From contig CAXTKV010000062.1 of assembly GCA_964244895.1 (NCBI GenBank), positions 1 through 23,932 of the forward strand: a DNA stretch of 23,932 nucleotides, in the 5' to 3' direction. This DNA is from an uncultured Deinococcales bacterium (GTDB taxonomy: Bacteria; Deinococcota; Deinococci; Deinococcales; JAAFIG01). Below are positions 583 through 14,735 of this stretch, piece after piece; position 1 is the first letter of the stretch, and every line of letters starts with the position of its first letter. A program made the translations under genes and the position numbers. The notes beneath the pieces were generated by a model. That model saw only the letters and a list, made by a program, of their open reading frames with translations, ran no database searches and was not told the DNA's origin.

Positions 583-1749
583 TCAAATCTGAACGAAGGT
601 TTGCGGCTCGAGGGTCGGCAGGGAGCCGTCACTGTAAATAGTGCGTCCCTGACGGATGGTGGCTCGGACGCGCGGCAGGGTGCGGGAATCGATGATGTTC
701 AGGTCGGCGCGCAGCCCGACCTCGAGCCGTCCCCGGTCGGTCAGTCCGGCTGACCGGGCGGGGTTTTCGGTGATCAGTTGGATGGCGCGCTCGAGCGGCA
801 GCAGGCCGGATTGGGCGATGGCGAAGGCGCTCTGCACCAGCGACGCGGGGTGGTAGTCGGCGCACAACAGATCAACTGCTCCGGCGCGGATGGCGTCCAG
901 GGCGTTGAGGTTACCGGAATGAGAACCTCCCCTCAGGGCGTTCGGTGCGCCCATCGCCACGAACATGCCGTGCGATTTGGCGGTGAGCGCGGCCTCGAGG
1001 GTCACGGGAAATTCGCTGATGGTCGTATTGAGGGCGTGCATGACGGAAACTTTTTCTGGTGTGTCGTCGTCGTGAGACGCGAGCGGGACGTTGCGGGATT
1101 GTGCGAGCCGCGCTATTTCGTGGGCCACATCCCAGGACACGGGCGTGCCCAGGCCAGCCGTGGCTGTTTCCCTGGCGCGTTCGCGGTCGCCGCCGAGCCA
1201 TTTGGTCATGTATTCGATGTAGGTTTCCAGGTCGCGGAATTGCCCTTGACCGGGCGTGTGATCCATCAATGAAACCATGTGAATCTGGTCGGCGGACAGG
1301 CCATCGGCCAGGAGCGCCGTGCCGGACGGCAGGCTGACCTCGAAGCGAGCGTGAACGCGCAAATCCACGCTCAGCTGGTCGCGCGCGGCGTTGACGGATG
1401 CGATCAGGCTTCTGGCGCGTTCCTCGGAGCGCAAGCCCGGCCCGTCCGCCAGCGCAATCGCGGCGTAGGCGGTCGTGATGCCGTTGGCCGCGAGGCGCTG
1501 GTCGAGCTGCTGCAGGGCCAGTTCGACCGGGAAGAACGTGCCGGGTCTGGGCTCGAGTTCGCGTTCGATCATGTCGCCATGAATGTCCACGATGCCCGGA
1601 ATGATGCTCAGGCCGCGCGCGTCAATCACGTGTCCGGTGAGGCGCGTTGGACGATCCGGCGCGATCTCGGCGATCACGCCTTCCTCGAGCCGGATGGAAC
1701 CCTGCGCGACGCGATCCGGCAGCACCAGTTGCGCGTCAGTGAGCCACAC
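583..1749 (-). CDS. phnM: Alpha-D-ribose 1-methylphosphonate 5-triphosphate diphosphatase PhnM (copy 2, cluster-distal)
   Basis: PGIVDIHGD..E..PRP, MDHTPGQGQFRD, ASHDD, SEFP, MGAPNALRGGSHSGN, ADYHP and GRLEVGLRAD motifs. GGAGG upstream of the GTG start; overlaps the phnL end. Confidence 0.95.
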   Translation of the reverse strand: MWLTDAQLVLPDRVAQGSIRLEEGVIAEIAPDRPTRLTGHVIDARGLSIIPGIVDIHGDMIERELEPRPGTFFPVELALQQLDQRLAANGITTAYAAIALADGPGLRSEERARSLIASVNAARDQLSVDLRVHARFEVSLPSGTALLADGLSADQIHMVSLMDHTPGQGQFRDLETYIEYMTKWLGGDRERARETATAGLGTPVSWDVAHEIARLAQSRNVPLASHDDDTPEKVSVMHALNTTISEFPVTLEAALTAKSHGMFVAMGAPNALRGGSHSGNLNALDAIRAGAVDLLCADYHPASLVQSAFAIAQSGLLPLERAIQLITENPARSAGLTDRGRLEVGLRADLNIIDSRTLPRVRATIRQGRTIYSDGSLPTLEPQTFVQI

Positions 1750-2473
1750 GCGCGACCTCCTCGAGCTCGCGTTGATCGGCGGGTGATTGGTTGGCGGGGC
1801 GCGCGATCTCGAGGCGCTGATCGATCAATCCCTCGACATCTTCCGGGTGGTGAAACACGCCGATCATCGCCACGCCCTCGCGCTTGAGGACTTCCAGGCG
1901 CGCGTACAGGGCGGCCCGAGCGATCGCGTCGAGGGAGGCCGTGGGTTCGTCCAGCAACAGCAGGCGGCGCGGGCGGATCAGGGCGCGCGCCAGGTTGACT
2001 TTTTGTTGTTCGCCGCCGGAGAAGGTCGTGGGGTACGCCTGCCAGAGTTCAGCCTTGAGATCGAAGGCGCCGAGCATCGAGGCCGCCACCTCGAGCGCGT
2101 TGGTGCGGGTCTGACCGTCGTGCAGCAGGGGTTCGGCCACCAGTTCCAGGGCGCTGACCCGAGGTCGGGGTCGCAGGAACTGCGTCACAAAACCGATTTC
2201 AAAGTCGCGCAACCAGGCGATGTCCTCGTCGGCGGCGCGCACCAGGTCGATCTGACCGCGCTCGGAATCGTAGAGCGCGGCACCGCCGGAAGAGCGGTAC
2301 GAGCGGTACAGGCAGCGCAGCAGGGTGCTTTTACCGACGCCGTTCGGTCCCGTCACCAGCGCGAAGCGGCCCGGTTCCAGCGAGAGTTCGAGTCGGTCGA
2401 ATGCCGTGACCTCGCGCCCGATGGCGTGAATGAAAAAGTGTTTGGAAAGCCCTTCGAGACGCAGCAAGCTCAC
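1736..2473 (-). CDS. phnL: C-P lyase ABC-type ATPase PhnL
   Basis: GPNGVGKS, IGFVTQFLR, PTTFSGGEQQKVNLAR, LLLLDEPTASLD, GVFH. AGGAGG 7 nt before GTG. Confidence 0.93.
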   Translation of the reverse strand: MSLLRLEGLSKHFFIHAIGREVTAFDRLELSLEPGRFALVTGPNGVGKSTLLRCLYRSYRSSGGAALYDSERGQIDLVRAADEDIAWLRDFEIGFVTQFLRPRPRVSALELVAEPLLHDGQTRTNALEVAASMLGAFDLKAELWQAYPTTFSGGEQQKVNLARALIRPRRLLLLDEPTASLDAIARAALYARLEVLKREGVAMIGVFHHPEDVEGLIDQRLEIARPANQSPADQRELEEVARVAH

Positions 2474-3255
2474 AGTACGGCCTCCTGGACGGTTTTTTCG
2501 GATTCAAACGTCGCGTTTTTCGGTTGCGGCTCGAGCTGTTCGACCCGGCGCGCGCCCCGCTCGACCAACCGAGCGATCTCGAGGGGCATACCGCTTTTCT
2601 CGATCATCCGCACGGCTCCCTTGAGATCGTAGCGCACCCGGTGAAATCCGATCTCGAGCGTGTCCGTGTCCAGCAGCGCGAAGGAGGCGCGCGTGTCCCC
2701 GTCCAGGCTGCGCCCGACCGCGCCCGGATTGACCATCGCCCGAGAGCTGACCCGGTGGGCAAAAGCGCGGTGCGTGTGACCCATCACGATCACGTCTGCG
2801 TCCACCCGGCGCGCCAGTTGCTCCATCGCCTGCGGGTACTCGGGTTCGTACCAGGCATCCAGGTACTCCAATCCCGCGTGTACCACGGCCACGTGCAGGC
2901 CCTCGAAGCTGAAACGCATGACCCACGGCAGGCTCGCCAGGTAGCGCTTGTCTCCCGGCAGGACGTTCTCGAGCGTCCAGCGCAAGGCGGCCCGCTTGAG
3001 GGGCTCGTTGCGCGGGCTGGACGGCGTGCGGCTGGCCGTTTCCAGGTCGTGCGCGACGGCATAATCGTAATTGCCGCAGACGCTCGGGATGCCGCGTTCT
3101 CGCATCAGTTTGATCACGCCGGACGGTTGCGCGCCGTAGCACACCAGATCGCCCGCGCAGAGCGTGAATTCCGCACCCTCCTCCTCCAGGGAATGGATCA
3201 CCGCCTTGAGCGCGTGCAGGTTCGCGTGCACATCCGCGATCAGACCGATCTTCAT
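2470..3255 (-). CDS. YfcE/MJ0936-like calcineurin-superfamily metallophosphoesterase
   Basis: ADVH, GDLV, GNYD, VH, GHTH and NPG motifs in order. GTGA overlap with the phnL start. Confidence 0.9.
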   Translation of the reverse strand: MKIGLIADVHANLHALKAVIHSLEEEGAEFTLCAGDLVCYGAQPSGVIKLMRERGIPSVCGNYDYAVAHDLETASRTPSSPRNEPLKRAALRWTLENVLPGDKRYLASLPWVMRFSFEGLHVAVVHAGLEYLDAWYEPEYPQAMEQLARRVDADVIVMGHTHRAFAHRVSSRAMVNPGAVGRSLDGDTRASFALLDTDTLEIGFHRVRYDLKGAVRMIEKSGMPLEIARLVERGARRVEQLEPQPKNATFESEKTVQEAVL

Positions 3256-3294: not shown

Positions 3295-3433
3295 GAGAAT
3301 GCAGTCCAGGACGGTAGAAAAGTCAGATTCGCACAGTTTTTGTTGACCCAGACGGCGTTCCCGAACTGAGCCAAGCATGCGAGAACACCGTTCAGCACGC
3401 GAGATTCGATTTGCGTCCAGGACGGTGTTCTGA
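3292..3433. repeat. Palindromic intergenic repeat, 4 partial copies
   Basis: Degenerate matches to GAGAACACCGT-N5-ACGGTGTTCTC centred at ~3308, 3349, 3394 and 3419. Confidence 0.75.
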
Positions 3434-3551
3434 GCACCTGGGTGCTCGAGACGCACTCGGATTCTTGGTATGGGGGCGCTGCAAAACCTGTGCCGCAACC
3501 GATTTTTTCTCGAGCCACCCTCTCGAGAAGGTGCCGTTTCCCTTCGACCGC

Positions 3552-4376
3552 TCAAAGCTTCGCGTGGACGAGTTGTTGCGTGTAGGGGTGCTGCGGGTCT
3601 TCCAAGACCTGATCGGTCAGGCCGGATTCGACCACGCGCCCGGCGCGCATGACCATCACGCGGTCGGAGAGCGTGCGGATCACGCCCAGGTCGTGCGAGA
3701 CGAGCACCATCGTCATGGTGTACTCGAACTGAAGGCGCTTGAGGGTGTCCAGCACGAGCGCCTGAACGCTCACATCCAATCCAGTCGTGGGTTCGTCCAG
3801 CAAGAGCAGCGTCGGCTCTAAGGCGATGGCCTTGGCGAGTTGCACGCGCTGCTGCATGCCGCCCGAAAGCCGCGCGGGCCAGTCATCCATGCGCGAAAGC
3901 GGGAACTCGCTGGCCTGCAACGAGGCGCGGGCCGCGCGGCGCAAGCCCGCGAAGTTCCGTTCGCCCGCCAGGATCAGGCGTTCGGCCACGTTGCCGGACG
4001 AGGTGGATCGCATCCGCAAGCCCAGCATCGGGTTCTGGTACACGATCCCGATGTGCCGCACGCGCGCCTCGCGCCGCTCGAAGCGGTTCAGGGCGAACAG
4101 GTCGCGCCCTTTGAGCCCGTCGGCGATCAGCGAGTACGATCCCGCGTCGGCGCTCTCTTCGAGGTTCAGCAGCCTCAGAACCGTGCTCTTGCCGCTGCCG
4201 GATTCCCCGACGATGCCCAGCACCTCGCCGGGGTAAGCGTGCAGGCTCACATCCTGGAGCGCCTGCACGGTTCCGTTGGAGGTTTCATAGCGCTTGCACA
4301 GGCCGACCGCGCGCAGGATCGGGCTGGCTTCGATCAATCGCGGTGGCTCGAGCGGAATCGGTTGCAGCATCGTCAC
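3552..4376 (-). CDS. phnK: C-P lyase ABC-type ATPase PhnK
   Basis: GIVGESGSGKS, SSGNVAERL, LSGGMQQRVQLA, DEPTTGLDVSVQA, VSHDL, VVESGLTDQVLEDPQHPYTQQLV. Confidence 0.95.
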   Translation of the reverse strand: MTMLQPIPLEPPRLIEASPILRAVGLCKRYETSNGTVQALQDVSLHAYPGEVLGIVGESGSGKSTVLRLLNLEESADAGSYSLIADGLKGRDLFALNRFERREARVRHIGIVYQNPMLGLRMRSTSSGNVAERLILAGERNFAGLRRAARASLQASEFPLSRMDDWPARLSGGMQQRVQLAKAIALEPTLLLLDEPTTGLDVSVQALVLDTLKRLQFEYTMTMVLVSHDLGVIRTLSDRVMVMRAGRVVESGLTDQVLEDPQHPYTQQLVHAKL

Positions 4377-4386
4377 GGTGAACCTT

Positions 4387-4441
4387 TCGAAGACCGTCCG
4401 GGACGGTACTCAGAGAATGCGTCCAGGACGGTATTCTCGAG
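4387..4441. repeat. Palindromic repeat pair between phnJ and phnK
   Basis: ACCGTccgggACGGT (centre 4400) and gagaaTGCGTccaggACGGTattctcgag (centre 4425). Confidence 0.85.
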
Positions 4442-4463
4442 ATCAACCCCGCGTGGAAACGGG

Positions 4464-5411
4464 TTAGGCATCCTGATCCTTCAAGTAGCCCTCGATGTAG
4501 AACGCGCCATCGTCGTCGAAATACGTCTGCCCGATCCGGACGACCTCGCCCTGGACGCGCTGACTGAGCTTGTCGCGGTAGCCGGAATCGGAGACCTCGT
4601 AGCGGGACGCGCCACCTTCCAAGGGGATCTCGTTCATGAATTTATGCCGCGCGCCGTTGCTGGCGTCCACCCAATCGCCTTGATCCTCGACCTGGAACGG
4701 CACGTCCTCGAACTCGATCGGTAGCACGTTCGTGTAGGGCGGCACGGCGTACAGGCGCTTCTCGCGACCCGCCGAGAGGATCGTCAGGTGCGCGGCCTGA
4801 TGGAGTTTGGGCGTGTCCCAGCGCGGGATTGGGCTGGGCGCCATGGCGTAGCGCGCGTGAACCATGACCGGGTAATCGGAGCCGTGCGTGACCTCGCGGT
4901 ACTTGACCAGATCCTCGTAGAGCCCGAGCCACAACAGGGCGTAATCGGCGTCGGCGTGCATCTCGCGGGCTTTGGCGTAACTGGGTTCCACGCCGGAAAG
5001 GACTTCCGGTACGGGCACCTGCAGCACCAGCACCTGGTGTTCCTGCAAGATTTCTTCCGGGATGCGGTGGCGCGACTGAATCAGCGTGGCGGCCATCGCG
5101 TCCGTGGTGGTCTGCACGCCCGTCATGCGCGCGATGAAACGCCGCAGGTTGGCGGCGTTGACGCTGTCGTCGTCGCCCTGGTCGATGACCTTCACGACAT
5201 CCGTTGGCCCGACCAGCGCCAGCGTGACCTGCAGGCCGCCCGTGCCCCAGCCGCGAGCCATCGGAACCTCTCGCGATGCGTACGGAACCTGGTATCCGGG
5301 AATGGCGATGGCCTTGAGCATGCGCCGCCGCAACTCGCGCTTGGCGAAGGCATCCAGGAACGCGTAGGCGTAATCCTGGCGCGCGAACGCCAGGTCTGAA
5401 ACGCGGCTCAC
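4464..5411 (-). CDS. phnJ: C-P lyase subunit PhnJ, cysteine-free variant
   Basis: Y.YAFLD, KAIAIPGYQVPYASRE, GWGTGGLQVT, KVIDQG.DD, QSRHRIPE, PSPIPRWD, GREKRLYAVPPYT. GTG start at 5411 after GGGGGA; the ORF track extends to 5432. Confidence 0.93.
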   Translation of the reverse strand: MSRVSDLAFARQDYAYAFLDAFAKRELRRRMLKAIAIPGYQVPYASREVPMARGWGTGGLQVTLALVGPTDVVKVIDQGDDDSVNAANLRRFIARMTGVQTTTDAMAATLIQSRHRIPEEILQEHQVLVLQVPVPEVLSGVEPSYAKAREMHADADYALLWLGLYEDLVKYREVTHGSDYPVMVHARYAMAPSPIPRWDTPKLHQAAHLTILSAGREKRLYAVPPYTNVLPIEFEDVPFQVEDQGDWVDASNGARHKFMNEIPLEGGASRYEVSDSGYRDKLSQRVQGEVVRIGQTYFDDDGAFYIEGYLKDQDA

Positions 5412-5424
5412 GCGATCCCCCACA

Positions 5425-5488
5425 AAGAACACCGTCTGGGACGCGTTTTCTCGAGACTCAAGAATACCGTCTGGGACGGTCTTTCTGA
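5425..5488. repeat. Palindromic repeat pair between phnI and phnJ
   Basis: agaacACCGTctgggACGCG (centre 5438) and agaatACCGTctgggACGGT (centre 5473). Confidence 0.85.
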
Positions 5489-5598
5489 AAACCCAAGGCT
5501 CGTTTCTCGCGTGAGCGATGTCTTTCTGGCGGCCTGCGGCTCGCGGCTCGCGGCCCCTCCTCGAGCCATCGAGCCGTTCGGTTCTTGATGCTCGAGCC

Positions 5599-6726
5599 TC
5601 ATTTGTTCAACTCCACCGGCTCGGACTCCGGCGCGGCCTCGAGCGCATCAACGTCCAGCGAACCGCCCTGGCGCGCCTTGCGCACGCGATCCAGGTCGCT
5701 GGCGAAGGTCACGTAGTGCGGCAGTTTGTAGTGAATGCAGAACCCGGAGGCTTCGACGGGTTCCGTGTGGGACAGCACGAATTCCTCGGTGTGGGCCGGG
5801 TGCGGGTTGGGCAGGCTCATGGCGACATCCAGCATCGAGGCGGCGATCAATTTCGTCTCGTTCCAGCCCAGGCAGGCCGCGAAGCCCAAAGAAAGTTCCG
5901 GTGGGGTCTTGTTGGTCGTGAACTTCGTGACGACCTCTGCGGACGAAAACCGCACGCGCCCCGCGCTGAAGGCCGCCCCGGTGATCGGGTGTTCGAGGCG
6001 CACGTCCGCGTAGGCCAGACGCACCTCATTGACGGTCGGGTGAATGCCGCCGTAGTTGCGCATGTTGGCGTAACCGAGCGCCAGCACGCCGCCCGTGTCG
6101 GCTCTGGCCAACGCCTGAAGCCGGTGCGCCCGAGGTGCGGGGTAAACGGGCGGTTCTCGGGTCAAGTCCGGGATTCTGGCCGCGTCCCGAACGTCCGCGA
6201 TCGGCAATTCCGTTTTGGGCGAGAGCAACCCGACTTCGCGCTGCCAGTCCGCCAGGAACGCGTAGCTCGAGGGCGCGCGGCTCTGCGAAGCCGAAGAAAT
6301 CAAAGGTTGCCTGACTGGAGAAATCTGCTCGAGCATCTCGAACATCAAGACACGGTGGCTGTAATCGAGCGTCGGCCCCAGAATCTGACCGCCCGGAATG
6401 TCCTTGAAGGCCGCACTGATGCGCCGCACCGTGATCATGTGATCGGGCGAAACCGGCAGCGCGTAGGCCACGCGCGGCTGAGTGCTGCGGTACGCGCGCA
6501 GCAGCAGCACCGCCTCGTACAGATCGCCGCCCGTCTGCGCCAGGGCCAGCGCGGCCAGGTCTGGCGCGTACAGGGAACCCTCACCCATGATCCGATCCAG
6601 CAGGTACGGCAGCTTGGCCTCGAGCGCCTCGACGAAAGCCCGGTCGAAATCACCGTTCAGGAGGCGGTAGAGGGCTTCCGCGCTCTGGATGGCGTTCTCT
6701 CCGCCTCTGGCAGCGACGTAAGCCAT
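5599..6726 (-). CDS. phnI: C-P lyase subunit PhnI
   Basis: MAYVAARGGE.AI, EGSLY.P.LAALA, LLRAYRST, RRISAAFKDIPGGQILGPT.DY, SGF..H.KLPHYV with both metal-ligand His. Start taken at ATG 6726. Confidence 0.96.
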   Translation of the reverse strand: MAYVAARGGENAIQSAEALYRLLNGDFDRAFVEALEAKLPYLLDRIMGEGSLYAPDLAALALAQTGGDLYEAVLLLRAYRSTQPRVAYALPVSPDHMITVRRISAAFKDIPGGQILGPTLDYSHRVLMFEMLEQISPVRQPLISSASQSRAPSSYAFLADWQREVGLLSPKTELPIADVRDAARIPDLTREPPVYPAPRAHRLQALARADTGGVLALGYANMRNYGGIHPTVNEVRLAYADVRLEHPITGAAFSAGRVRFSSAEVVTKFTTNKTPPELSLGFAACLGWNETKLIAASMLDVAMSLPNPHPAHTEEFVLSHTEPVEASGFCIHYKLPHYVTFASDLDRVRKARQGGSLDVDALEAAPESEPVELNK

Positions 6727-6727
6727 C

Positions 6728-7351
6728 TCAGACGGCACCATTCGAGGTCGTGTCTTGCACGCTGATCAGCGTCGTGCGCGGCACGCCCAGCACGCGGGCG
6801 CTCGAGGCGTCCGTCTTCTCGACCAGGAACACGTCCCAGCCGAGCGGGTAGCTCGAGACGCGGTTCCTGAGCATCCAGAACGCTTCCGGCACGCCCCGAA
6901 CGCGGGCGCTGGATTCGGTCTGAATGCCGGGGCCGCTCAGACGCAACTCCGGGCCTGAACCGAAGGCGCAGGCGATCGCGATGGTCGCGGATTGATCCGG
7001 GTAGACCAGCGTTCCGATGTTCGCGCGCTCGAGTTGCGCGAGCGCGTCCGCATCGAGGCTCGAGAAGAACAGGTAGTCAGCCTCGCTCACGTCCCGGAAC
7101 GGCGCGCCCGTCCTCGAGAGCGCCGCCCGCAGTTCCGCGCTATTCGAGAAGAACCCGACCTCGAGATCGAGCAGCGCCTCCGCGATGGTTTCCAGCCCGG
7201 TGGAATCGCCGTCTCGGGACGCGAACCCCCTGATCTCTCCGGGACGCGACAGCGCCCACATCAGCGCCTGCGAGGTGCCGTGCTCGCGCAATTCGGTGTT
7301 TGAAAGCACCGGGTGTTGACCCCTGAGTTCTGACTCCTGGCCCCTGACCAC
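6728..7351 (-). CDS. phnH: C-P lyase subunit PhnH
   Basis: ALSRPG, LLD.EV, GT..YPD.SAT, L.GPGI, YPLG.D and G.PRTT motifs; position between phnG and phnI. Confidence 0.9.
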   Translation of the reverse strand: MVRGQESELRGQHPVLSNTELREHGTSQALMWALSRPGEIRGFASRDGDSTGLETIAEALLDLEVGFFSNSAELRAALSRTGAPFRDVSEADYLFFSSLDADALAQLERANIGTLVYPDQSATIAIACAFGSGPELRLSGPGIQTESSARVRGVPEAFWMLRNRVSSYPLGWDVFLVEKTDASSARVLGVPRTTLISVQDTTSNGAV

Positions 7352-7807
7352 CTAGAACGTCTCCATCTCGACGCGCGTGGATTCGACCCGTTCGAGCAGC
7401 AGCTCGTCCTCGAGTTCGAGCGCGCGCGATTGATCCTCGATGAAGGCAGCGATCCGCGCAGTCTGAAGGTTTTTGCTCAGGCACGCGTCCAGGATCGCCA
7501 CGGCCAGCGCCTGCTCGAGATCGCGGCCCAGGCAGGCGGTGTAGCCTTCGCGCCCACCGACGCGCACGCGGGCTTCGCTGACCAGCACCTCACCGATGTG
7601 AAAGGTCGTGCCGCGCGCGCTATCCACGGCGGGCAGCATCACCAGGCCCGTGCGGTTCTCGAGCACGATCACCTCGTGCTGGTCGCGTTCGAGTTCCTCG
7701 AGCACGCCGTCCACGAAGTCCTTGACGATCTGCGCGGGCGCTCGGTTGAGCGTGCCCAGCGTCGCGGATTGCAACTCCGGCGAGTAGGTCGCGCTCAACG
7801 GGAACAC
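7352..7807 (-). CDS. phnG: C-P lyase subunit PhnG
   Basis: TGLVML...DS....F.IGEVLVSEARV, A.A.LDA and C-terminal TRV..ETF. Start is GTG 7807 or TTG 7798. Confidence 0.88.
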   Translation of the reverse strand: MFPLSATYSPELQSATLGTLNRAPAQIVKDFVDGVLEELERDQHEVIVLENRTGLVMLPAVDSARGTTFHIGEVLVSEARVRVGGREGYTACLGRDLEQALAVAILDACLSKNLQTARIAAFIEDQSRALELEDELLLERVESTRVEMETF

Positions 7808-7862
7808 CGTCCTACACAGTCTTCCTCGAGACGGTAAAAATTGCGTCCAGGACGGTGTTTCT
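7801..7862. repeat. Palindromic repeat pair upstream of and overlapping the phnG start
   Basis: gaacACCGTcctacACAGT (centre 7813) and TGCGTccaggACGGTgttt (centre 7849). Confidence 0.8.
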
Positions 7863-7922
7863 GCATCTCGAGGCTCGGCATGATCGCGCTCACGAACGTA
7901 TCTGACCGCCCGAGCGTCATGA

Positions 7923-8771
7923 TCAGGTCAGGCGCTGGCGCACGGCGGACGACAGGGAATCCACCAGGAAAACCGACACCAGAATCAGCAAAATGATCGT
8001 GCTGGCCGCGCGGAAATCGAAACCGCGAATCGCTTCGGTGATGTAAAACCCGATGCCGCCCGCGCCGACGATGCCGAGCACGGTCGCGGCGCGCACGTTG
8101 GATTCGAAACGGTACAGCGTCATCGAGACGACGTGCGGCAAGACTTGCGGCCAGACGCCGTGCGTGAAGACCTGGAACGGGGTCGCGCCGGTGGCCTGCA
8201 CGGCCTCGATCTGACCGTGATCCACGACCTCGATGCCTTCAGAAAAAAGTTTCGCCAAAATGCCCGCCGTGTGAAGCGCCAATGCCAGAATGCCCGGAAA
8301 AGGCCCCAGCCCGACCGCCACCACGAACACCAGCGCCAGCACGAATTCGTTCAAGCCGCGCATGAAATCCAGCAACCGGCGCGTCACGACGTACACGACC
8401 GGGTGCGGGCTGGTGTTGCGGGCCGCCAGAATGGACAGCGGCACCGCCAGGATCACGGCCAGCAGCGTGCCCCAGAGCGCCATCTTGATCGTTAACAGCA
8501 TCTGCGCCAGGTATTCGGGGAAGCGCCTGAAATCTGGCGGAAAGAACCCGGAATTGGGCCGGTCGGCCTCGCCCGCCAGCAATTTCCAGCTTTCGCCAAG
8601 GCCACTGAACAACCGGGGCAAACTGATTTCCGTGCCGAAGTACGCCCAGACGACCACGGCCAGAATCGTGAGCCACATGGCGCGGTTCCAGAACAGCCTC
8701 GTCCTGACCGGGGCGGGCGGGTTGATGTTGACGGATTTCTGATTCTCGAAGCGCAGGCTGGGATTGGTCAT
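7923..8771 (-). CDS. phnE: Phosphonate ABC transporter permease PhnE
   Basis: Hydrophobic; GLGPFPGILALALHTAGILAKLFSE.IE, EA..ATGA, YRFE.NVR.ATVLG.VGAGGIG. Confidence 0.95.
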   Translation of the reverse strand: MTNPSLRFENQKSVNINPPAPVRTRLFWNRAMWLTILAVVVWAYFGTEISLPRLFSGLGESWKLLAGEADRPNSGFFPPDFRRFPEYLAQMLLTIKMALWGTLLAVILAVPLSILAARNTSPHPVVYVVTRRLLDFMRGLNEFVLALVFVVAVGLGPFPGILALALHTAGILAKLFSEGIEVVDHGQIEAVQATGATPFQVFTHGVWPQVLPHVVSMTLYRFESNVRAATVLGIVGAGGIGFYITEAIRGFDFRAASTIILLILVSVFLVDSLSSAVRQRLT

Positions 8772-8794
8772 TTCCGGTGTTGTCCTTTTGAATT

Positions 8795-8846
8795 GGCGCT
8801 CTGGACGGTGTTCTCACATCTCGAGAAGACCGTCCAGAACGGGTGC
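8795..8846. repeat. Palindromic repeat pair between phnD and phnE
   Basis: tctggACGGTgttctc (centre 8802) and ctcgagaagACCGTccagaACGGG (centre 8836). Confidence 0.8.
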
Positions 8847-8897
8847 TGCGTATTCAAGACCCGAGGGGATTCTCGCCCCCGCGAGCCGGGACGGGGC

Positions 8898-9791
8898 TTA
8901 CTTCGCGAGGCTCTTCTTGACTTCGCGGGCGTCGCGGATCGGGTTGAAATCCTTGTCGTCCACGCTGATGTAGCCCTTGATGTTGAAGGCGTCCATGCCC
9001 GCCGGGTCCTTGAACGCCAGGAACGCGGCTTTGACGGCCTTGCGGAAGGATTCAGGCAGATCCTTGCGGATCGCGGTTGGGCCGTTCGGGATCGGGGCGG
9101 AAGTCCAGATGGCGCGCAGCTCGTCGGCCTTGATCGCGCCCTTGTCGATGGCCTGCTGGTAGCTCTGATCGTTGGTCGCGCCGACATCAACCGTTCCCTT
9201 GGCGACGGCCAGGATCGAGTTCTCGTGGGTGCCCGCGAAGATCACCTTCGAGAAGTATTCCTCGGGCTTGACCTTGAGATCCTTGTAGAAGTAGACGCTC
9301 GGGATCAGGTAGCCGGAGGTGCTCTCCGGATCGACGAACGAGAAGGTCTTGCCCTTCGCGTCGGCCACGGTCTTGATGGGGCCGGAGGCCTTGGTCAGGA
9401 TCATGCTCTTGTAGGAAGCGCCGCCCTTGACATTGTCCGGGATCACCAGGGCTTCGACGTTGCCGCCCGTCTGCTCCACCGCGTCCAGGTACGAGTTCGC
9501 GCCGTAATCGGCCAGTTCGACCTGTTTGGCTTTCTGAGCCAGAATCACGGCGGTGTAATCCGCGCCGTTCTGGAACTTGATCTTGACGCCGAGGGTTTTT
9601 TCCAGGTGCGCAATCAGGGGCGCGTAACGCTGGGTCGCGTCCTTGCTGGCTTCGGAGGGAACGGCGGCGTAACGAACTTCCTGCGGCCAGCCGGTGCGAT
9701 CCTGCGCGCTGCTCGAGCCCGCCAGCAACCCACCGAGAAATGCGAAACCAGCGGCCATACCGATGCCCAGCCCAACGATTCGTTTGTTCAT
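8898..9791 (-). CDS. phnD: Phosphonate ABC transporter substrate-binding protein PhnD
   Basis: Signal peptide MNKRIV...SSA-Q; DY...I.A, FVDPESTSGYLIP, FAGTHE, IWTS.PIP. ATG 9791 overlaps the phnC stop (ATGA) after GGAG. Confidence 0.94.
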   Translation of the reverse strand: MNKRIVGLGIGMAAGFAFLGGLLAGSSSAQDRTGWPQEVRYAAVPSEASKDATQRYAPLIAHLEKTLGVKIKFQNGADYTAVILAQKAKQVELADYGANSYLDAVEQTGGNVEALVIPDNVKGGASYKSMILTKASGPIKTVADAKGKTFSFVDPESTSGYLIPSVYFYKDLKVKPEEYFSKVIFAGTHENSILAVAKGTVDVGATNDQSYQQAIDKGAIKADELRAIWTSAPIPNGPTAIRKDLPESFRKAVKAAFLAFKDPAGMDAFNIKGYISVDDKDFNPIRDAREVKKSLAK

Positions 9792-10702
9792 TGCTCCCAC
9801 TCCTTTTTGCTGCGTGCGACCATGCTTATCGTTTGGCTCGAGAGCGCTCTCGAGCTGTCCGCCATATCGAAACGAGCCACGTTGGGCTCAGGAGAGATCG
9901 GGAATCCTGCCGGAATCACGGACGCGTTCGACATTCCGGCCTCGTGCGTGCGCTCGGCGCGGTCTTCTTCGCCGTAGTAGAGTTCGCGCGCGATCTCGGG
10001 GGTCAGCGCTTCAGGCCGACCGTCGAACACGACGCTGCCCTTGCGAAGCGCGATCACGCGCTCGGCGTACTCGCGCACGGCGTCCAGGTGGTGCAAATTG
10101 GCGATCACGGCGATGCCGTCCTCGCGTTGAATGTTGCGCAGCAACTCCATGACCTGCTCGCTGGACTTCGGGTCGAGCGCGCTGATCGGTTCGTCCGCCA
10201 GGATCAACTCGGGTTCCTGCGCCAGCGCCCGCGCGATGCCGACGCGCTGCTGCTGACCGCCGGACAGGGTATCGGCGCGCTGCCAGGCGTAATCGGCCAT
10301 GCCGACGCGCTCCAGCAAGCGCATGGCGAGTTCCCGGTCGCTGCGCGTGTAGGCCCGAAAGGTCGTGCGCCAGACGGGGTTGTAGCCGAGCCGCCCGAGC
10401 AGCACGTTTTCCAGGGCGGTGGATCGGCGCACCAGGTTGAACTGCTGGAAGACCATGCCGATCTTGCGCCGTTCGCGCCTGACCAGCGCACCCGGAGCCC
10501 TCGAGACCTCGACATCGCTCAGCCAGACGCGACCCTGGGTCGGTTTGACCAGGCCGTTCAGCACGCGCATCAAGGTGCTTTTACCCGCCCCTGATGGCCC
10601 GATCAGCACCGTGAAGGACGCGCCGGAGAGTTCCAGGCTGACATCGCGCAGCGCCTGCGTGCCGTTCGCGTAGCTGTGCGTGACGTGCTCGAGTCGGATC
10701 AT
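9788..10702 (-). CDS. phnC: Phosphonate ABC transporter ATP-binding protein PhnC
   Basis: GPSGAGKSTL, GMVFQQFNLV, NVLLGRL, LSGGQQQRVGIARAL, ILADEPISALDP, NLH. GGAGG RBS. Confidence 0.95.
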   Translation of the reverse strand: MIRLEHVTHSYANGTQALRDVSLELSGASFTVLIGPSGAGKSTLMRVLNGLVKPTQGRVWLSDVEVSRAPGALVRRERRKIGMVFQQFNLVRRSTALENVLLGRLGYNPVWRTTFRAYTRSDRELAMRLLERVGMADYAWQRADTLSGGQQQRVGIARALAQEPELILADEPISALDPKSSEQVMELLRNIQREDGIAVIANLHHLDAVREYAERVIALRKGSVVFDGRPEALTPEIARELYYGEEDRAERTHEAGMSNASVIPAGFPISPEPNVARFDMADSSRALSSQTISMVARSKKEWEQ

Positions 10703-10853: not shown

Positions 10854-11981
10854 CTACTGGAGATCCCAGCTTTCAATCGCGCTGGTCGAGCCCATGTTCT
10901 CGTCGAAGGCGTAAGCGTCGGCGTGAACCTTGCCGCTGCCGTAGACCGAAACCTTGACCCAGGCGTACTTGCGGTCGTTCGGATTCTGGCTGTCACCCGG
11001 TTTGGCATCGAACGGTGATCCGCCGGAACCCACGATCACTTCCCAGGCTTTACCGCCTTTGTCCTTGGCGGGCTGCATGGCGTGGTAGATGTGTTCGTGA
11101 CCGCAGAAGTAGGTCGCGTTGTACTTCTCGATCACGTCCCAGACGGCGCTGGCGTTGTCCGCGTTGACATCAACGCCGCCCGCTGCGACCTTGTCGTTGT
11201 ACTTGTAGGTCGCGAGCGGTTTGTGTCCGAAGACGAAGATGTTCTTGACGCCTCGAGCTTTGGCCGCCGCCAGGTCAGACGCCAGCCAGTTGACGGGCGC
11301 GTGCGCGTCGTTGCCGACGGGATCGGTGTTGATCACCACGAAGTGAAGCCCCTTGGCATCGAAGGAGTACGAGAGTTGCTTCTGATCGGTCTGGATACCG
11401 TCCGGACCACCGACGACGGGCGCATTGTTGATGTCCCAGGCGACGGGCATTTCGCCGTGAATGGTCTTCCAGAGGTTCTGGTTGAGGATCAGATCGCCCA
11501 TGTTCTCGCGCCAGGCGTTCTCGTTGCCGGGGCGCGCCAGTTTGAAATCCTTGCCTGCGGCGTCCTTGCCCTTTTCTTGAACTTCGTGGTTTCCAGGAAC
11601 CGGCACGACGTAAGTTCCAGTCTCCATCAAGCCCGCGACCACGCCGCGCCAGAAGGCGTACTGGCGGTTGAGGGTGTTGGTATCGGTGGTGTAACCCATG
11701 ATCATGTCGCCGTTGTAAAAAAGCACGCTGGCCTTCTGCGCGCTGATCTCTCGCGCCTGCCGGGTCAGGACGCGCGTGTTCTGCAACCACAGCTTGTCCT
11801 GGGCGCTGATGTTGGGCGTGGTCGGGTCTTCTCTCGAGTCGCCGACGGTGGCGAAGGTCAAGATCACTTGATCGCTGGTCTGGGCGGCGGTCGGCGCGGT
11901 GTGCAGAAAAGCGAATCCAGCCAGCGCGGCGACCGCCGAAACTGGGACGATCTTGCGAAAAAGCGATGGGGATCGGTTCAT
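10854..11981 (-). CDS. Secreted calcineurin-like metallophosphoesterase
   Basis: Signal peptide (..TAA-Q); GDSR, NGDM, PGNHE, FGH and GHEH motifs; AAGGAGG RBS. Confidence 0.88.
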   Translation of the reverse strand: MNRSPSLFRKIVPVSAVAALAGFAFLHTAPTAAQTSDQVILTFATVGDSREDPTTPNISAQDKLWLQNTRVLTRQAREISAQKASVLFYNGDMIMGYTTDTNTLNRQYAFWRGVVAGLMETGTYVVPVPGNHEVQEKGKDAAGKDFKLARPGNENAWRENMGDLILNQNLWKTIHGEMPVAWDINNAPVVGGPDGIQTDQKQLSYSFDAKGLHFVVINTDPVGNDAHAPVNWLASDLAAAKARGVKNIFVFGHKPLATYKYNDKVAAGGVDVNADNASAVWDVIEKYNATYFCGHEHIYHAMQPAKDKGGKAWEVIVGSGGSPFDAKPGDSQNPNDRKYAWVKVSVYGSGKVHADAYAFDENMGSTSAIESWDLQ

Positions 11982-12600: not shown

Positions 12601-13827
12601 TCAAGCCAACTCGAGCGTACCGTCCGAGTACACGACGCGACCGGCGCGCAAGGTGGCGCGCACGCGCGGCAGCGATCCGTCCTGCACGAAGGCGATGTCC
12701 GCGCGGCGACCGACCTCGATCCGGCCCCGATCGGAAAACCCGACCGCGCGAGCCGGGTTTTCACAGATCAGCCCGATGGCCTCCCAGAGCGGCAAACGAC
12801 CGTCCATGGCGATCTTGAAGGCCGCCTGCACCAGCGCGCCCGGCGAGTAATCCGCCGCCAGGATGTCCAACGCGCCCGCCTCGAGCGCCTGAATCGCCGA
12901 GAGGTTGCCCGAGTGCGAACCGCCGCGCAAGGCGTTCGGTGCGCCCATGATGACCGCCATGCCCCTGGCTTTGGCCTCGAGCGCCGCCTCGAGCGACACG
13001 GGAAACTCCGACAGGCTCGCACCGACCGCCCAGACCAGATCGACTTTTTCAACCGTGTCGTCATCGTGAGAGGCGACCGGCACGCCCGCGTGAACCGCGA
13101 TGCTCGCCACGTCGCGCACGACCTCCCAGGAAGGCGGCGCGTCGGCCACGCGCTGCATCTTTTCCAGGATGCGCGCCTCGACTTCCTCGCGCGGCGCACC
13201 GCGCCACTTGGCGCTGTACGCGATCATGTGTTCCAGATCCCGGTACTGGCCCTGACCGGGCGTGTGATCCGTCAGGGACACCAGATCGAGATGACCCGCC
13301 TCCAGCAGATCGCGCAGGATCGGGGCTGCGCCGTGGTTGGTGATCTCGAAGCGCGCGTGGACGCGCCAGTCCACCAGCATCGCGTCCCGGTGCGCGTGAA
13401 TGTCGTGAATGATGGCTCGCGCGCGCTCCTCGGAGCGCAAGCTCTGGTTGGTGCGCGCCTCCGCAAAACTGACCGCCGCGAAGGCCGTCGTGACGCCCGC
13501 CGCTGCCAGGCGCTTGTCGAGTTCGATCATCGCCATCTGCGTCGAGAATTCCGCGCCCGGACGCGGTTCGATCTCGCGCTCGATCATGTCGCCGTGAAGG
13601 TCCACCACGCCCGGAATGATGGTCAGGCCGCGCGCATCGAACGTATCTCGAGATTCGGCGTCTATAGCCCCGCTTCCCTCACTGATTTCAGCGATCCGTT
13701 GACCCTCGAGCCGGATCGAGCCTCTTTCCAGCAGGCCATCGGGCAGGACGATGCGCGCGTCGGCAATCCAGCGTTCCCGACCGGACGCATTCCGGTCGCG
13801 TTCCTGAAATGGCGTGTCCGCAATCAT
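12601..13827 (-). CDS. phnM: PhnM paralog (copy 1)
   Basis: PGVVDLHGD..EREIEPRPG, DHTPGQGQYRD, ASHDDD, SEFP, MGAPNALRGGSHSGN, ADY, GRIEVGRRAD. Confidence 0.95.
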   Translation of the reverse strand: MIADTPFQERDRNASGRERWIADARIVLPDGLLERGSIRLEGQRIAEISEGSGAIDAESRDTFDARGLTIIPGVVDLHGDMIEREIEPRPGAEFSTQMAMIELDKRLAAAGVTTAFAAVSFAEARTNQSLRSEERARAIIHDIHAHRDAMLVDWRVHARFEITNHGAAPILRDLLEAGHLDLVSLTDHTPGQGQYRDLEHMIAYSAKWRGAPREEVEARILEKMQRVADAPPSWEVVRDVASIAVHAGVPVASHDDDTVEKVDLVWAVGASLSEFPVSLEAALEAKARGMAVIMGAPNALRGGSHSGNLSAIQALEAGALDILAADYSPGALVQAAFKIAMDGRLPLWEAIGLICENPARAVGFSDRGRIEVGRRADIAFVQDGSLPRVRATLRAGRVVYSDGTLELA

Positions 13828-13867: not shown

Positions 13868-13936
13868 ACGCAGTCCAGGACAGGTGCGTCAGCATTTTTT
13901 GAGGCTCGAGAACACCGTCCAGAACGATTCCCCCGA
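13868..13936. repeat. Palindromic repeat pair
   Basis: GCAGTccaggACAGG (centre 13877) and ctcgagaacACCGTccagaACGAT (centre 13921). Confidence 0.75.
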
Positions 13937-13943
13937 GAACGCC

Positions 13944-14579
13944 TCAGCGCCCGAATTTTTGCAGGAACGCATCCATGTCCTTGAAATTCTCGAAGCGTTC
14001 CTCGAGTTCCGCCCGCGTCCAATCCCACCAGGCGATGCGCTCGAGCTGCTCGATGACTTCTCGCGTGAAACGCGGTCGCAGCACCCGCGCCGGAACGCCG
14101 ACCACGACCATGTACGGCGGCACGTCCCTGGTCACGACCGCGCCCGCACCGATGGCCGCGCCGTTGCCGACGCTCACGCCCGGCATGACGGTCGCGTTGT
14201 GACCGATCCAGACATCGTGCCCAATCGCGACCGGCGATGCCCGACGCCACGCGAAGAAATCCTCGTCGTCGCGATCAGCGAAGCCGTACTGCCGCGCGCG
14301 GTAGGTCATGTGGTGGCTGGTGACCCGATCTAAGGGGTGATTGCCGGGATTCAGGCGCACGAAGGACGCGATCGAACAGAATTTACCGACGACGGCCTGA
14401 TTGATCTGGCAGAACTGCATGACATAGCTGTAATCGCCCAGGCTGGAATCCGTGAAGGCCGTGCCTTCAGCGATTTCCGTCCACTCGCCCAATTCCGAAC
14501 CCGTGACGCGCGCGGTCGGGTGGATGCTCGGTTGCGGCCCGAGCTGCGCTAGCGCGGCTGAACGCTCGATGGAAGTCAT
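13944..14579 (-). CDS. Phosphonate-cluster hexapeptide-repeat (LbH) acyltransferase
   Basis: [26 protein letters not shown]...[30 protein letters not shown]. Typical of the family found beside C-P lyase genes. Confidence 0.9.
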
Positions 14580-14671: not shown

Positions 14672-14735
14672 AAAGAAAGCCGTCCCAGACGATGTTCTCG
14701 AGATTGAAAGAACGGCGTGCTGGACGGTCTTCTCA
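14672..14735. repeat. Palindromic repeat pair overlapping the dusB stop codon
   Basis: GCCGTcccagACGATgttctcgag (centre 14686) and GGCGTgctggACGGTcttctca (centre 14721). Confidence 0.8.

Follow-up and report, generated by a model that had tools for sequence, protein, structure and literature searches.

The PhnJ encoded in the 23,932-nucleotide stretch of DNA from an uncultured Deinococcales bacterium analysed here (the window) is a PhnJ by family and by fold, yet fails the defining tests of a radical-SAM PhnJ. It is unable to hold a Cys-ligated [4Fe-4S]/SAM site or to form the C272 thiyl radical. Since no PhnJ cysteine is available for the textbook Fe-S radical mechanism, this branch of the family must use another mechanism or act on other substrates. 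On the best reading of the sequences, phosphorus would be released at the histidine-metal site of PhnI and PhnJ without a PhnJ-bound Fe-S/SAM centre.

The phnJ gene and the former cysteine site

The gene and its relevant parts are as follows.

4464..5411, (-): phnJ, 315 aa, zero Cys; PF06007, 401 bits
4575..4667, (-): former four-Cys site of PhnJ, with D249, N252, V273 and R279 for C241, C244, C266 and C272
4569..4571, (-): K281 of PhnJ, two residues past the C272 position
4467..4547, (-): C-terminal aromatic/acidic tail of PhnJ, ∼27 residues beyond the end of the E. coli chain

The score of 401 bits, against a cut-off of 25, places the protein in the PF06007 family; an in-frame GTG at 5432 is an alternative start that would extend it to 322 aa. 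The preliminary description had reported a PhnJ with zero cysteines, and translation bears this out, there being no TGY codon in the reading frame. Alignment to E. coli PhnJ (7z15_D, E 9e-82) sets D249 (4665-4667) against C241, N252 (4656-4658) against C244, V273 (4593-4595) against C266 and R279 (4575-4577) against C272, with 20 residues between the second and third positions, as had been described. The CX2CX21C cluster ligands (C241, C244 and C266) are thus absent, and the position of the catalytic C272 is occupied by R279; the accepted roles of these residues are given in the available parts of PMC7916636 and PMC11978286. The acidic and aromatic extension, first put at ∼25 residues, was likewise found, and is modelled at high confidence to about residue 310.

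The window PhnJ model (pLDDT 87, with blocks over 241-310 at 90-96) matches the E. coli fold over residues 10-286, former Cys domain included, with Z 36, rmsd 1.7–1.8, 274 aligned residues and TM 0.94, values to be read with the caution that prediction may reproduce the known structure. An Atlas search with residues 233-315 returned PhnJ clusters and nothing else above 0.8, and a search of 50% clusters yielded fragments for the most part. In comparison with the E. coli Phn(GHIJKL)2 complex (PF06007; PDB 4XB6, 7Z15-7Z19), with which it shares 45–47% identity, the window system keeps Gly32, the product-binding residues, the PhnI His ligands, Y158, D229 and the operon order GHIJKLM. In contrast to E. 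coli PhnJ, it lacks C241, C244, C266 and C272, carries the tail and has F37 changed to Y; E149 is also changed, to D, which is the usual residue in non-E. coli canonical PhnJ.

Operon and genome context

The operon lies on the minus strand in the order phnC-D-E-G-H-I-J-K-metallophosphoesterase-L-M, and ahead of phnC are an acetyltransferase, a second phnM and a second metallophosphoesterase.

583..1749, (-): phnM, TIGR02318 over cut-off
1736..2473, (-): phnL ATPase, by family match and motif check
2470..3255, (-): calcineurin-like metallophosphoesterase between phnK and phnL, by family match
3552..4376, (-): phnK ATPase, by family match and motif check
5599..6741, (-): phnI, PF05861
6728..7351, (-): phnH, by family match
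7352..7807, (-): phnG, lineage-specific subfamily
7923..10702, (-): phnC, phnD and phnE transporter, TIGR02315, TIGR03431 and TIGR01097 over cut-off
10854..11981, (-): second calcineurin-like metallophosphoesterase with a putative signal peptide, just upstream of phnC
12601..13827, (-): second phnM, 55% identical to the first (583-1749)
13944..14579, (-): phn-associated hexapeptide acetyltransferase, TIGR03308

The phnC, D, E, G, H, I, K, L and M genes are whole ORFs that match their families, so that the intact phnGHIKLM of the preliminary description is confirmed, with phnCDE alongside. PhnK and PhnL both contain Walker A, Walker B and signature motifs; they fall below their own TIGR cut-offs, although their best matches are still PhnK and PhnL. 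The genome is 91% complete, and its closest named relatives are Deinococcales MAGs. In it there is one match to phnJ and one to phnI, and no canonical phnJ was found elsewhere that might carry the function. In contrast to E. coli, no match to phnN or phnP was obtained over cut-off across the genome, and a metallophosphoesterase is situated inside the operon. The latter arrangement is seen at 11 of 22 main-lineage loci versus 0 of 54 canonical loci, and the enzyme is a candidate stand-in for PhnP. For the second metallophosphoesterase (10854-11981), neither another genomic match nor an NCBIfam name was found. The two phnM copies flank the operon, and two phnM genes occur in some relatives as well.

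A large Cys-poor lineage under purifying selection

Cysteine number was counted in the best 120 of 6,983 PhnJ matches plus the query. Zero cysteines were found in 44 of these 121 sequences, one in 68, two in seven and three in two; the window accounts for two of the 44, so that zero Cys is also the state of 42 of the 119 other top homologues. A set of 214 relatives was then compiled from two pooled searches and three named members, after removal of the duplicate of the window and of one sequence containing an internal duplication; chosen by likeness to Cys-poor queries, its rows show the pattern and not its share among all PhnJ. The four-Cys motif is found in 0/214, as is cysteine at 244, 266 or 272. 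Position 241 is C in 163 rows, D in 43 and S in six, position 244 is T in 163 and S in 43, position 266 is L, I, V or M in all 214, and position 272 is mostly A, M, L, K, G or V. In canonical PhnJs the four cysteines are nearly invariant (59, 58, 59 and 59 of 59). Several canonical actinobacterial ORFs (L046, L047, L052, L059, L062, L069) are 600–770 aa long and are putative PhnJ-PhnK fusions.

Matches to phnJ were obtained in 47 of 364 Deinococcota genomes, five of them only weak, leaving 42 real; the Cys-poor protein is the sole PhnJ type in 38 of these, three are canonical and one has a fragmentary copy that was left unread. Two matches were flagged with an internal TGA, and their ORFs run through the C-terminal domain. 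Beyond the Deinococcota, the lineage extends to Anaerolineae and other Chloroflexota, to alphaproteobacterial and Thermus plasmids, and to hot-spring Synechococcus. Twenty-four of the 26 genomes behind named loci have one PhnJ copy. Of the other two, one carries a pair of Cys-poor copies, and in Mesorhizobium retamae a single Cys-poor copy is accompanied by two canonical ones. A Haematobacter plasmid has one of each type. Features typical of the lineage are PhnJ Y37 and K281, PhnI C335 and its neighbours, and a distinct PhnG subfamily. The Thermus thermophilus HB8 pVV8 and hot-spring Synechococcus (Thermostichus) members, with PhnJ about 64–65% identical to that of the window, likewise lack C244, C266 and C272; unlike the window, they keep the C241 equivalent, have no aromatic tail and have Ala at PhnI 335. 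The cysteine loss to which the preliminary description drew attention is real, but what was treated there as a single gene belongs to a large lineage whose members mostly keep the C241 equivalent (163/214) and which lacks the tail in one branch. The contributions of the window are a branch with zero Cys, the exchange of C and D at position 241, the parallel occurrence of Lys281 and a test of separate loss based on PhnI, described below; its copy shows that even the last PhnJ cysteine is dispensable.

Pairwise Nei-Gojobori dN/dS, for which pairs overlap and those with the window are near saturation, was 0.013–0.119 for the PhnJ core in 20 of 21 main-lineage pairs (one was saturated) and 0.015–0.40 for the former Cys domain in 19 of 21, the canonical range being 0.006–0.22 (eight pairs). 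The histidine-metal site of PhnI and PhnJ, the product-binding residues and both ATPases are kept under purifying selection. Decay of the gene, sequence error, or a passenger role beside a canonical copy is scarcely credible. The genome is 91% complete and a second copy could be unassembled, but the difference extends over four separate codons, the lineage has many members, dN/dS values are low, and single- or few-contig relatives (G143, G265, G036, G106) carry the Cys-poor type alone. Neither close homologues with the Cys motif nor relaxed selection, which the preliminary description had named as grounds against its reading, was found. Nor had Cys-less PhnJ apparently been characterised previously: a description of the lineage was not found in the open-licence literature, and it is not mentioned in the available portions of PMC9381506, PMC12413358 and PMC9477430.

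Lys281 is present in 213 of the 214 sampled relatives and, in the comparison alignment, in 50 of 53 lineage rows versus six of 59 canonical ones. It may stand in for the metal ion. Very doubtful is a binding of a cluster or metal by non-Cys ligands in the C-terminal domain with the radical role kept. E242, E261 and D275 are conserved and the conserved aromatic tail packs nearby, but canonical PhnJ conserves the same three residues, hydrophobic or small side chains occupy 266 and 272, the histidines of the domain vary and the tail is missing in one branch. The tail was also considered as an essential substitute, and rejected on account of its absence from the Thermus/Synechococcus branch.

Conservation of the product- and metal-binding sites

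The PhnJ residues that correspond to the E. coli product-binding site, together with the glycine, are encoded as follows.

5295..5297, (-): G39, equivalent to E. coli Gly32, invariant
5241..5252, (-): loop 54-57, equivalent to E. coli 47-50, which binds the product 5'-phosphate; invariant in the lineage
5019..5072, (-): R114, H115 and Q131, equivalent to E. coli R107, H108 and Q124, product-binding, invariant

In the E. coli structures, as described in the available part of the most recent structural study (PMC9947105), the cyclic product was modelled at the Zn site of PhnI H328 and H333 with PhnJ R107, Q124, H108 and loop 47-50, PhnI H219 joins the Zn site in the open state, and the cyclic product was formed by the core complex without added phosphonate. 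The same source places the Cys site 30 Å from Gly32, and Gly32, which is buried, 31 Å from the Zn; it calls the C-P lyase mechanism unresolved and the geometry of the Cys site and Gly32 unreconciled. The 30 Å gap is also noted in part of PMC7916636, according to which the kinetics came from isolated GST-PhnJ.

All of the PhnJ residues listed, including the Gly32 and His108 equivalents (G39 and H115) that were said to be retained, are present in 214/214 relatives. The two PhnI histidines described as retained are indeed so, H337 (5731-5733) corresponding to H328 and H342 (5716-5718) to H333, and H234 (6040-6042) corresponds to H219; these ligands are kept in 50 of 50 main-lineage rows. Two residues ahead of H337 is C335 (5737-5739), a cysteine shared by 47 of the 50 rows and by all 17 D241 members; the other three rows, and likewise the hot-spring loci, have Ala instead. 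That C335 is a replacement thiol throughout the lineage was rejected on the basis of those Ala residues and of its occurrence in the canonical PhnI of Methylibium. Positions 326-329 of PhnI, next to the His ligand, show lineage-typical changes, and F37 of PhnJ is Y in 51 of 53 lineage rows versus two of 59 canonical ones; since Y37 also occurs in these two canonical PhnJs, it is not an exclusive marker. In the alphaproteobacterial members L113, L114 and L118, a Cys directly follows the Gly32 equivalent, in place of Tyr or His.

Probable repeated loss of the cysteines

Five Dehalococcoidia loci (L023-L025, L027, L031) show the same Cys-poor pattern as the window, reading C, S, A and A where the cysteines would be, and all five have Lys281. 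They differ from it in lacking the tail and in that their PhnG, PhnI, PhnK and PhnL group with those of canonical operons, the PhnI proteins being 36–39% identical to that of the window. Trees were built from the PhnJ core with the Cys domain left out (116 rows) and from PhnI (110 rows); both are quick trees with long branches, and on both the Cys-poor state requires three changes. Joining the two Cys-poor groups was rejected by PhnI (p-AU 0.0006) but not by the PhnJ tree (p-AU 0.106). A Chloroflexota PhnJ, L041, in which Gln replaces C244 alone of the four cysteines, is a possible intermediate.

Asp at position 241 also requires three changes on the tree, being found in the window with Deinococcales and Meiothermus, and in Anaerolineales. 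Since C241 can be exchanged for Asp, it behaves like a turn cap and not like a catalytic thiol. This rules out the single leftover PhnJ thiol as the catalyst, at least for the window's branch.

Neighbouring genes and the source of a radical

From 41 Cys-poor loci, many of which end at contig edges, a heuristic gene call gave 137 non-phn ORFs, of which the 133 of ≤700 aa were scanned against Pfam. The CxxxCxxC motif was found in 0/137, and among the 133 there was no match to radical-SAM, ferredoxin, flavodoxin or 2-hydroxyacid-dehydrogenase families, nor, in these neighbourhoods, to a phosphite-dehydrogenase type or a dioxygenase as in the ptx/htx operons for phosphite and hypophosphite oxidation; the neighbours thus lend no support to a role in phosphite use. 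Similarly, no radical-SAM gene is present in the annotated Thermus and alphaproteobacterial regions or in the 21-kb hot-spring locus, where the cassette is a bare CDEGHIJKLM, and such redox genes as lie beside Cys-poor loci are singletons. The option of a radical in trans, raised in the preliminary description, thus finds no support from genes linked to these loci.

An unlinked radical-SAM activase or other host protein that acts on Gly32 or another residue is improbable also. The Gly32 equivalent is invariant, 14 long ORFs in the genome carry a radical-SAM-like Cys motif, and PhnI C335 could relay a radical near the metal. However, the cassette travels bare on plasmids and is found in four phyla, such that each host would need to provide the partner; Gly32 is buried and distant from the metal (available part of PMC9947105), C335 is Ala in the Thermus/Synechococcus branch, the neighbouring ORFs lack radical-SAM, ferredoxin and flavodoxin matches, and no match to the PFL family was found across the 91%-complete genome.

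The recurrent neighbours are instead a metallophosphoesterase (14/41 loci) and a TIM-barrel family (8/41), and other phosphoesterase-type genes (YmdB-, EEP- and DUF1045-type genes, GDPD, PhoX) are seen, DUF1045 and phnN adjoining two alphaproteobacterial members. Recurring genes of this type, with phosphodiesterase-type ones in the place of phnP, fit a cyclic-phosphate product and a phosphorus-scavenging role. The TIM-barrel gene (AP_endonuc_2, TTHB071-like; e.g. L008:310-1167, G000:C13:13709-14542) often adjoins Cys-poor phn operons; its best curated match is weak, to the phosphodiesterase CbiR, and it is a candidate non-orthologous PhnP. It was rejected as an obligate partner, occurring in 27 of 39 non-canonical phnJ genomes and in 56 of 364 Deinococcota, and not being found at E≤1e-40 in the single-contig G143.

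Chemistry and substrates

The known Fe-S/SAM/thiyl mechanism cannot run on the window PhnJ; the preliminary description offered three options (different chemistry, a different substrate, a radical in trans). The reading favoured here, about as likely as not, is a working C-P lyase with its chemistry at the histidine-metal site and the Cys knuckle reduced to a structural turn. PhnCDE would import the phosphonate, PhnI, PhnG, PhnH and PhnL would join it to the ribose moiety of ATP, and the triphosphate would be trimmed by PhnM, as in E. coli. What is left of the old Cys4 knuckle would be a structural turn without metal, made up of [C/D]-x-x-[T/S]-G, the conserved Lys and, at 266, a hydrophobic residue, and the C-P bond would be broken at the histidine-metal site to give ribose 1,2-cyclic phosphate 5-phosphate, to be opened by the metallophosphoesterase in PhnP's place. 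With alkylphosphonates, the break would take the form of a one-electron step by a redox-active metal at the His site (Fe or Mn for Zn), with an H atom from a cellular donor; this particular step is unlikely to be correct, and we know of no precedent for alkane release at a His2-metal site. Against the favoured reading, canonical PhnJs keep the four cysteines nearly invariant, as would a catalytic site.

A bolder proposal, possible but short of probable, is that in this lineage unactivated C-P bonds are cleaved and alkanes released at the histidine-metal site without Fe-S, SAM or PhnJ cysteines, and that the process is therefore oxygen-tolerant. With all else retained, the Cys4 site appears to have been lost on two or more occasions; it may accordingly be a zinc knuckle of structural function in canonical PhnJ as well, in which case the accepted radical-SAM mechanism would not be the cellular one. 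Concerted loss of a Cys4 knuckle (zinc-ribbon) with retention of the fold is known from the C+/C- ribosomal protein paralogues, where zinc is accepted as structural, whereas the PhnJ cysteines have been assigned a catalytic role.

Conversely, the substrate could have changed and no radical be involved, which seems rather unlikely, if a serious competitor: after ribosylation, attack by the 2'-OH at the Zn site would close the 1,2-cyclic phosphate, with a leaving group that departs as an anion, whether from activated C-P compounds (e.g. beta-carbonyl or alpha-hydroxy/amino phosphonates), from P-O or P-N bonds, or possibly from reduced phosphorus. This is ordinary chemistry, in keeping with cyclic product made by the E. 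coli core without phosphonate, and the lineage-typical changes beside the pocket (PhnJ Y37; PhnI 326-329) and coexistence with canonical paralogues in Mesorhizobium retamae and on the Haematobacter plasmid agree with it. Nevertheless, the Cys-poor protein is usually the sole PhnJ (24/26 genomes with one copy), the transporter scores as the phosphonate type, no phosphite-dehydrogenase-type neighbour recurs, Y37 is shared with two canonical PhnJs, and a Synechococcus member reportedly releases alkanes.

The Synechococcus protein concerned, ABD01166.1 (3,046,682-base contig), is of the Cys-poor lineage type, without C244, C266 and C272; it keeps the C241 equivalent and one more Cys nearby and is therefore not zero-Cys. 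It is presumably from strain JA-2-3B'a(2-13) (OS-B'). OS-B' is said to release methane and ethane (Gomez-Garcia 2011) and the phn-less OS-A not to, both strains growing. Given that the phn-less sister reportedly also grows on phosphonates, growth alone proves little. A full phn cluster and growth on phosphonates are attributed to JA-2-3B'a(2-13) in the available part of PMC5955973, and divergent phosphonate use in two mat strains is cited in that of PMC10574752; the phn genes of pVV8 are mentioned, with no phenotype given, in the accessible text of PMC5529391.

The assigned Fe-S site, Gly32 and the product-binding metal site are about 30 Å apart (available part of PMC9947105). A natural, conserved complex without the cysteines offers a ready test of which site performs C-P lyase chemistry. 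Culturable, thermostable members exist (T. thermophilus HB8 pVV8). Activity on alkylphosphonates would mean C-P chemistry of a new kind and might provide an enzyme stable in air for the clean-up of phosphonates; if there is none, surveys that equate every phnJ with methane capacity overcount.

Finally, a short palindromic repeat family occupies nearly every intergenic gap of the window, often in pairs (e.g. 3414-3437, 4395-4443, 5425-5494, 7825-7872, 8791-8841, 13905-13939, 14681-14735). The genome contains 733 copies of the 11-base core of the repeat, versus about six expected from base composition, in the manner of a REP-like element.
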